Part shown: positions 53,137 to 54,708 of the stretch, piece by piece | Layout: every line of letters starts with the position of its first letter | Position numbering within the stretch: the stretch's first letter is position 1 | From: Girardia tigrina | Lineage: Eukaryota | NCBI GenBank assembly: GCA_001938485.1 | Contig: MQRK01191981.1 | Location: forward strand, 28,412 to 92,411 | DNA length: 64,000 nt | Direction of reading: 5' to 3' | Translations under genes and position numbers: made by a program | Notes under the pieces: generated by a model | Database searches by the model: none | The model's input: the letters and a program-made list of their open reading frames with translations, nothing else | Told to the model about the DNA's origin: nothing

Positions 53137-54708
53137 TTAAAGTTTTTTCTTTTTCTTTTTATGTTTGTTTTCCAATTTCCAGGTAATTATTTGACCATCT
53201 TTCGCTACATATTCAATTTCTTTGATACGTCTCTTGAAGGTTTTTCCATTGACGATGAGCTTCGAATAAATTGTCTGCGCATTTTTATCTGGGGCAACCT
53301 CCGTAATAACGTTCTTCGCAATTGATAATTTGCTTTTCTTGATCTGTTGAATTTCCGCTTTTTGTTGTTCTGAATTTCCTCCCGCTGATGGGTTTTCGTT
53401 AAATAATTTTTCGATCGATAACTCTTCCTCCCATATTTCAATTTCAGAAGTATTATCGTCTAAATCGACTGAGTTTTCATTCCAGACCTGGATAATATTT
53501 TCGATTGAATCTTTCCAGTCACTGTTGACATTGTTTTGAGCCAACATTGTAATCGATGGATTTAAATTTTTGTCCAAAGAATCCACTATCAAAATTGGAT
53601 TTGTCCTTTCCACTACATCTGGAGGATGTTGAGATGATGTTGAAGGTATTCCGGGGTTGAAGTCATCGATAAATTCATCCTCTATTTTCCGAAAAATGTC
53701 ATACACAGCTCGTGCATCCTCCTGTGAATTGTGCTTTCCCGGTCTTTGAATTTCTTTACCCAGAAGGACGCCTGCGACATCCTGCAACTTATAGTATTGA
53801 CCTTATCCTTTTGGGTAGAGATTCTATTTTTCCAGCGCTCTTGCGGTTGTCAAGTCTCTTATTCGCAGTAGAGACTTCTTGTCGATGCACAGATGTGTGA
53901 GTTCCATCTGTAAATCGTGTCCAACAAGGATTTTTCCCTTGCAGATTTCTCTGATTCTTTTAAGGATGTCATATTCATCCAGCTGCCTCCGAAGCTGTCT
54001 TTCTGTAAGTCCATGGACTTTGGTACCTAATTGTTCAATTCGATGCCTTGGAGTGATTAGACAATCTATAACGGTTTTCCCTTCTCCGTTCAATATTGTA
54101 ACCGACACTGGTACTCTCGAATTGTCGGCAATTTTACACGAGAATTCGGCATCTAAAAACAATAAGTGTTTTCTCATTTCCTTTTTCTCCAAATGCTTTC
54201 GGATGAAGCTTTTCCGGTGATTAAAATCATTTTCGGTTGGGGTATAGACAGAACCAACTAAATGACCTTCATCTTTCCATAATTTCGGATTATAATTGAC
54301 CTTTGGGTATTTTCTGTATTCGACCGCTACGATGGCCGGTCGATCCGCAGCTTGAATAAAAAGGTTTTTGTCATCGACGGTTATGCTCCATGATGTTTGA
54401 CGATCGAGCACTGAATTGATAGTCTTCTCCTTGTTGAAAATCTTTACGGGTTCTGCGGCAATATGCAGTTCGATTTCGCCATTTGACATTTCGAAGCATA
54501 TGTCTGAGATCATTTGGGATTGATTGTTGAAAATTAATTCAAGGTAGATCTCCATTTCGAAATCTGTTGTCCGGATATAATTAGGAAAAGCAAGATTGTC
54601 ACGGAGTCTCCTTCTGAATTGTCCCGTTCGAGTACTCAGCATGTTGCAAAATTCCGCGTAGATTTTGCTGGATCTCGTAGTCGACTTTTGAAGCATTGAC
54701 TGTTTCAT
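53137..54708 (-). pseudogene. DEDDh 3'-5' exonuclease (REX4/ISG20/AEN-like) with N- and C-terminal extensions; two in-frame stops
   Basis: ExoI FLDAEF, ExoII ILVGHDLQMEL, ExoIII HNSQEDARA. ORFs 53824-54708 and 53137-53787 share a frame (LEK*NLYPKG*GQYYKLQDVA). The C-terminus is KHKKKKKKL. Confidence 0.85.

Follow-up and report, generated by a model that had tools for sequence, protein, structure and literature searches.

Exonuclease ORFs are already known from Gypsy retrotransposons. In bdelloid rotifers, the Gypsy elements Juno and Vesta, as well as the Athena/Terminon elements, carry an ORF3 encoding a DEDDy (RNase D-like) exonuclease (Rodriguez et al., 2017, PMC5408684), which is also mentioned in PMC5718144 and PMC6338049 and whose function is given as untested (PMC5408684). 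The first-pass annotation of the DNA studied here was right that DEDD nucleases are not a standard Gypsy component, but an exonuclease ORF had been described in Gypsy elements before (PMC5408684). Two other described systems are close in architecture. Burro/GYPSM1, a giant planarian Gypsy element, has its env in frame between gag and pol (Arkhipova and Yushenova, 2019, PMC6431247), and errantiviruses of the GAG-ENV-POL type with an HSV/gB-type env have been reported from Nematoda, Bryozoa, and Platyhelminthes (Chary and Hayashi, PMC13524379). What distinguishes the present gene from the rotifer ORF3 is a DEDDh exonuclease fused to a cupin domain and located in env-before-pol elements.

The stretch analysed (64 kb of Girardia tigrina, hereafter the window) contains a gene that very probably belongs, as a conserved accessory component, to large Ty3/Gypsy elements in which a gB-type env precedes pol (the Burro/GAG-ENV-POL architecture); the copy in the window is decayed. 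The gene sits downstream of pol, often with the 3′ LTR immediately following, and encodes a cupin-fold domain joined to an ISG20/REX4-derived exonuclease, very probably acquired anciently from a cellular gene and inherited with the elements since then (Table 1). Like the rotifer ORF3, it is a stand-alone 3′–5′ exonuclease ORF downstream of pol that keeps its catalytic residues, with DEDD changed to DEED (PMC5408684). In contrast to the rotifer ORF3, it is a DEDDh enzyme (His326) of the ISG20/REX4 group and not a DEDDy enzyme with RNase D/mut-7/WRN affinity, which indicates an independent capture; moreover, the exonuclease is fused to a cupin-fold domain, and elements of the window type have a gB-type env before pol, unlike most Juno/Vesta elements, which lack env (PMC5408684). 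Similarly to Burro, these elements bear ubiquitin/SUMO-like, MATH-TRAF, RING, and ankyrin cargo, some of it as accessory ORFs (PMC6431247). However, the available text on Burro mentions no exonuclease (PMC6431247), and the likeness drawn here is one of architecture. Gene order and env class are shared with the GAG-ENV-POL errantiviruses, in whose description the main text contains neither the words “exonuclease,” “DEDD,” “nuclease,” and “accessory” nor ORFs downstream of pol (PMC13524379). No description of a cupin–DEDDh gene was found in the literature searched, Repbase entries and paper supplements lying outside that search. This would be a second, independent capture of a 3′–5′ exonuclease by Gypsy elements, in an undescribed domain fusion.

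Table 1. Coordinates of the accessory gene and of the surrounding element in the window.
Feature	Position	Strand	Evidence
Assembly gap at the expected site of the 3′ LTR, starting 203 nt past the stop	52631..52933	.	
Hairpin, 6-bp, GAGGAC loop, 73 nt past the stop	53053..53070	-	seven related loci
Accessory gene (cupin-like domain, DEDDh exonuclease, disordered tail)	53137..54708	-	frame, Pfam, relatives, model
Tail, poorly conserved, predicted disordered, acidic, ending in a Lys run from an A-rich tract	53140..53673	-	
ISG20/REX4-group DEDDh exonuclease domain, residues ~181-345	53674..54168	-	profile, structure match
Internal stop, codon 302	53803-53805	-	
Internal stop, codon 295	53824-53826	-	
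N-terminal double-stranded beta-helix (cupin/2OG-oxygenase fold), residues ~10-135	54304..54681	-	model, VIA-align
AT-rich spacer, pol-tail stop to exonuclease start, 412 nt, 26% GC	54709..55120	-	
Post-integrase extension: signal-peptide-like segment, then fibronectin-III-like repeats	55121..56170	-	sequence; ESM Atlas FN3 score 0.95, low recognition
Gypsy pol: RT, RNase H, H2C2 zinc finger, integrase core	56170..59122	-	three frames
gB/chuvirus-type env N-terminal fragment: signal peptide and ~190 codons, four stops	59187..59810	-	PF24664 E 1.4e-15
Polyprotein region upstream of env, ubiquitin-like domain(s), frameshifted	59811..60886	-	PF00240 E 5.7e-6; second weak match E 0.09

The exonuclease was identified at several levels. 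The profile comparison with RNase_T/DEDDh that had been proposed for this gene returned a Pfam RNase_T match above the gathering cut-off (E 1.7e-6, window protein with X at the breaks). The best solved relative by sequence is human ISG20 (E 5e-6), onto which the predicted model superposes with Z 18.4 and rmsd 2.3 over 161 aligned residues, giving a DnaQ-like fold, and the family profile finds its nearest relatives of solved structure in ISG20L2 (E 1e-29), ISG20 (1e-18), and SDN1 (9e-14). In the alignment to ISG20, the catalytic positions are D186/E188 (ExoI), E269 (ExoII), and H326/D331 (ExoIII); the three Exo motifs first noticed in the letters are thus all present, and the Glu at ExoII is a normal variant. 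Indeed, the 65 intact family rows have Glu in 36 cases and Asp in 29, so that Glu269 is a trait of the family. Of 77 distinct family rows, 65 retain the complete catalytic set, and judging from these residues the intact members are probably active nucleases.

In fold (Z 18.4 to ISG20) and catalytic layout, the domain resembles the cellular ISG20/ISG20L2/REX4/SDN1/Pan2 group. Nevertheless, it differs from this group by its separate branch, the absence of introns, the N-terminal cupin, the frequent Glu at ExoII, and changes at the positions of ISG20 Met14 and Arg53, which contact the ribose and have been credited with the RNA preference of that enzyme (PMC9157404). The Arg53 position is Arg in 72 of 78 cellular rows and mostly Gly, Val, Cys, or Glu in the element-borne family (G228 in the window); the Met14 position is Met in 68 of 78 cellular rows and mostly Phe or Cys in the family (F189 in the window). 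As these ribose contacts are changed in the family, the residues do not discriminate between RNA and DNA preference. In being a cell-derived DEDD nuclease on a virus-like element, the domain also recalls the viral ExoN of arenavirus NP and nidovirus nsp14.

The ~180-residue N-terminal region, initially described as uncharacterised, is indeed present and now folds in silico as a cupin/AlkB-like beta-helix. Searches of this domain gave no Pfam family, no PDB match by profile, and no usable ESM Atlas match, and the fold was found via the predicted structure; the profile comparison proposed for this region therefore came back empty, and it was the model that proved informative. AlphaFold predicts with confidence a two-domain protein followed by a disordered tail (pLDDT <50 at residues 358-483), and the N-domain modelled alone reaches pLDDT 86. 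With VIA-align, it matches the cupin 2i45 (Z 9.4, rmsd 2.9, 93 aligned), ALKBH6 (Z 9.3, rmsd 3.4, 123 aligned), and a prolyl hydroxylase (Z 9.1); among the matches listed, 50 of 50 are of cupin/2OG-oxygenase type by title (Z 7.5-9.4). As these scores are tied, they establish a double-stranded beta-helix fold but not its subfamily. Among viral models, plant-virus replicases, which we take to be AlkB-bearing, and cupins come on top, and in this respect the domain resembles plant-virus AlkB domains, an AlkB-type fold heading the viral structure search. However, zinc fingers are absent, and the N-domain lacks the AlkB iron triad. The window N-domain has a single His (82) and no HxD/E...H metal triad, and in a 34-row alignment the near-invariant columns are only Tyr, Pro, and this His. 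With a sole His, the iron triad cannot form, which makes the N-domain a binding or structural module.

An exhaustive protein search gave 748 matches, of which the best 150 were taken, and the same N-terminal domain was recognised in 44 of 160 collected proteins; a search for longer proteins with the N-domain returned family members only. Three intact relatives covering the full length are 70, 52, and 50% identical to the window protein over residues 1-345, and the tail is 25-34% identical to the closest relatives. The closest relatives (P0002-P0005) were compared as proteins, while genomic context was read from metagenome loci (L001-L045). In a quick tree of 182 exonuclease domains, leaving out those shorter than 130 residues, 78 cellular REX4-like rows (a label inferred from motifs and one check) lie behind a branch with SH-aLRT 99, and two rows are intermediate. 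The remaining 102 rows (support 88) include the window sequence, nested with P0002/P0154. Therefore, the window exonuclease branches with the element-borne family and not among cellular REX4-like proteins. The dN/dS values are 0.03-0.10 for the exonuclease (7 of 11 pairs estimable) and 0.03-0.39 for the cupin domain (8 of 11 estimable), dS being often >1, and they indicate that the family is under strong purifying selection. The suggested comparison across copies, carried out here on relatives, thus revealed an intact, divergent, and strongly selected family, and the first reading of a stand-alone REX4/ISG20-like DEDDh gene inside the element is supported by the pol/LTR context, the tree, and dN/dS. 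The genes are intronless in all loci seen. Tandem pairs occur in L003, L017, L021, L040, and L004, where an upstream paralogue precedes an intact one; in the upstream paralogue all catalytic residues are changed and the frame is open. The retention of open dead paralogues in L003, L017, L021, and L040 points to a binding role as well. In sum, the family comprises dozens of intact divergent members that are strongly selected, with active and dead paralogues occurring in pairs; it represents a retroelement lineage rich in cargo, of which the relatives studied here come only from metagenomes. Among viral contigs, 38 pattern matches were obtained, none confirmed as family members.

A family-specific pattern retrieved 45 metagenome loci, mostly short and mostly from three assemblies; nine were dropped as chance pattern matches, leaving 36 true members. 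Where at least 5 kb of upstream sequence is available, RT-RNase H-integrase is found upstream on the same strand in five of six loci, 54-56% identical to that of the window, and the sixth carries RING and TRAF cargo, with an end similar to that of the others. The position and strand of the window gene are matched in L003, L010, L012, L018, and L021; L010 and L018 encode gB/chuvirus-type env, protease, RT, and RNase H, along with integrase, in a single frame. In L011, the exonuclease is followed by the hairpin, a ~1.58-kb TG...CA LTR-like stretch, a primer-binding site, and gag with a zinc knuckle, with one LTR copy visible and no TSD. This primer-binding site is presumably of tRNA-Lys type. 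The RT and exonuclease trees of six elements have both well-supported pairs in common, their one disagreement being a fork with support 71. The RTs closest to that of the window (53-70%) are almost all metagenome proteins, and those from named animal or plant genomes reach at most 47%.

The hairpin followed by the TG start of the 3′ LTR is present in seven of 36 loci (L001, L002, L011, L012, L029, L038, and L045, four of them one subfamily), with the loop G(A/G)GGAC. Such hairpins number nine in 39,862 nt downstream of the gene, one in 129,228 nt upstream, and none in 169,090 nt of the opposite strand. Five of six pairs covary and 0 of 500 shuffles reach the score, in rows chosen for having the hairpin. 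Across the two strands of the window (128 kb), 10 loops match and just one of them, 73 nt past the stop, forms such a hairpin; the bases after it do not match the pre-LTR tract of the relatives. In six of the seven pre-LTR loci, the tract before TG is C-rich, not purine, and in L011 the PBS is closely followed by another hairpin of this kind. Other observations concern the cargo. Upstream of the exonuclease, L002 (3137-4928) and L045 (4183-7882, minus) have cargo ORFs for a complete TRAF-like protein (with RING, zf-TRAF, and MATH) and for RING fingers, and both loci end in the pre-LTR signature. The polyprotein tails of L003, L012, L021, and L032 contain a second aspartic-protease domain after the integrase, and ankyrin repeats occur in those of L003, L017, and L021.

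Regarding expression, the gene had been proposed to be a separately expressed nuclease behind an AT-rich spacer with TATA-like tracts. The DEDDh ORF is separately encoded and the 412-nt spacer is there, but TATAWAW occurs three times against 1.36 expected per 412 nt of the window, which is background level, and an internal TATA promoter was rejected in favour of a splice acceptor. Specifically, in 19 of 30 family ORFs a splice-acceptor-like TNYAG ends ≤4 nt from the first Met, and 15 of the 28 other ORF starts of L001-L045 have it immediately ahead of the ATG, compared with 38 of 827 intergenic ATGs, the rule having been set after seeing the sequences and the loci being related, not independent. 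An earlier, stricter rule gave 12 of 30 family ORFs versus 20 of 827 intergenic ATGs. No acceptor was found next to the ATG of the window copy. Based on these motifs, a spliced subgenomic RNA is the likelier expression route in the relatives, and the pattern suggests that the cargo ORFs form a polycistronic cassette resolved by cis- or trans-splicing. The Lys-rich end, first read as a poly-Lys NLS, exists in the window, but among 49 relatives compared, some of them truncated at contig ends, only two have a K/R-rich end, and the closest full-length ones lack it; the NLS was rejected for this lack of conservation.

In animals, to our knowledge, few transposons encode suppressors of silencing or sensing, and most of the cases are unproven. 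The most likely role of the product, to which we would give an even chance, is to clear nucleic acids that trigger host defence, acting in the cell. Intact copies would be translated from a spliced (cis- or trans-) subgenomic RNA, outside the Gag-Env-Pol polyprotein, and the protein would act in the cell, not in the particle. The metal-free cupin domain may help to bind the substrate, and the nuclease would remove either single-stranded nucleic acid originating from the element (abortive cDNA, RNA by-products) or small RNAs that mediate silencing, allowing the element to escape nucleic-acid sensing and RNA silencing. Possible analogues of this action are the arenavirus NP ExoN and host TREX1 in HIV infection. 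This anti-defence role is favoured because the gene has its own ORF with a splice acceptor at its start, lies near cargo of host-manipulating type (TRAF/MATH, RING, ankyrin, ubiquitin, FN3-like), and keeps dead paralogues, and because the arenavirus ExoN, which suppresses innate signalling (10.1101/2021.02.01.429129), offers a precedent.

Of the two functions suggested in the first-pass annotation, countering small-RNA defence and trimming RT intermediates, we rank anti-defence above trimming. In the latter reading, which we regard as unlikely, the exonuclease would trim or proofread the 3′ ends of cDNA or RNA for the RT, permitting an unusually long genome. The elements are long, with pol-containing frames of 2,200-2,965 codons and several cargo ORFs, the gene persists throughout the lineage as the other cargo varies, the exonuclease is under strong selection, the Arg tied to RNA preference in ISG20 is lost, and ExoN has been linked to genome growth in nidoviruses. 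However, none of the loci seen has the gene fused to the polyprotein, unlike enzymes that need packaging, dead paralogues are retained, and rotifer elements with and without the exonuclease ORF3 coexist (PMC5408684). The family offers small soluble proteins on which the anti-defence and replication-helper roles could be directly compared.

Placed behind both, and likewise unlikely, is an action on host or competitor RNA, through shut-off, interference with rRNA/snRNA 3′ maturation, or an ISG20-like antiviral protection of the occupied cell. Such maturation is the job of cellular REX4/ISG20L2. The closest solved relatives are ISG20L2, ISG20, and SDN1, and ISG20 is a broad antiviral nuclease (PMC9157404); yet the substrate-contact residues differ from those of the cellular group and the C-terminus has no conserved nuclear or nucleolar signal. 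A broader and equally doubtful proposal is that the giant enveloped Gypsy lineage behaves like complex viruses with a spliced accessory cassette, where the pseudo-AlkB/cupin-exonuclease, as the most constant accessory gene, would be either an RT proofreading partner (lifting the size limit, as a retroelement equivalent of nidovirus ExoN) or a nuclease that reads modifications and destroys methylated piRNAs. If true, either activity would be new for a retroelement-encoded enzyme.

Returning to the window itself, its element is a decayed relic. The order RT-RNase H-integrase is of Ty3/Gypsy type, and the env fragment upstream of RT corresponds to the GAG-ENV-POL gB-type order. Pol has frameshifts near 58675 and 57057, and a junction near 59125-59190 marks the loss of the protease and of the remainder of env, residues ~497-1373 of L010 (about 875) having no match in the window. 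No LTR pair, gag, PBS, or TSD was found in the window, where the assembly gap starts 203 nt past the gene. The accessory gene reads on the minus strand from 54708 to 53137, the plus strand being closed by many stops; its 523 codons plus stop confirm the frame of ~520 codons with two nonsense codons reported initially. The exonuclease also bears a non-conservative change at residue 282, within an almost invariant motif, and this copy of the gene is dead. A second copy was not found within the 64-kb window. Part of the stretch is contained in 20 of 24 sequencing-run rows, with a best word share of 0.30 and none reaching half.

A rival reading is that the gene is a processed pseudogene of host REX4, without relation to the element, or an independent insertion beside a Gypsy remnant. 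No LTR or TSD is visible in the window, the GC3 of the gene (0.40) departs from that of its pol (0.24-0.28) by more than in five relatives, and P0002-P0005, the closest relatives, were compared at the protein level. Nevertheless, the window gene is nested in the element-borne family and not among the cellular REX4-like rows, has the family-specific cupin domain, occupies the same position and strand as in the five loci listed above, is followed by the family's pre-LTR hairpin, and has no flanking repeats. A host pseudogene or an insertion with its own TSD, which the first-pass annotation had named as the opposing case, is thus largely refuted and very improbable. Finally, a variant genetic code leaving the gene intact, with both internal stops (TAA/TAG, codons reassigned together in some eukaryotes) read as sense, has practically no chance and was rejected on the codon usage of the same element, since two adjacent frames (557 and 688 codons), lying in AT-rich DNA, contain 57 Gln and no TAA/TAG, intact relatives carry differing ordinary residues at both stop columns, and the element also bears frameshifts and a large deletion.

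Some further features of the window can be mentioned. The post-integrase signal peptide and FN3-like repeats could possibly form a decoy that is secreted or sits in the membrane. After the integrase, a hydrophobic segment and a long tail are likewise present in L010 and L018, and the tails of the window and L010 show no pairwise similarity. No tRNA genes were found. A minus-strand frame at 51811-52443, spanning a gap, matches CTP_transf_like (E 0.004). From its motif, we take it to be a host-type choline-phosphate cytidylyltransferase-like protein. On the plus strand, 61304-62812 is a GC-richer, coding-like, and apparently broken stretch with a weak RING-like match (E 0.06) and no matching ORF in any related locus. 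Long inverted repeats at 27139-28042, 34742-36872, and 32900-33013 (177 nt, 95%; 119 nt, 91%; and a 56-nt palindrome) are probably remnants of MITEs or DNA transposons.
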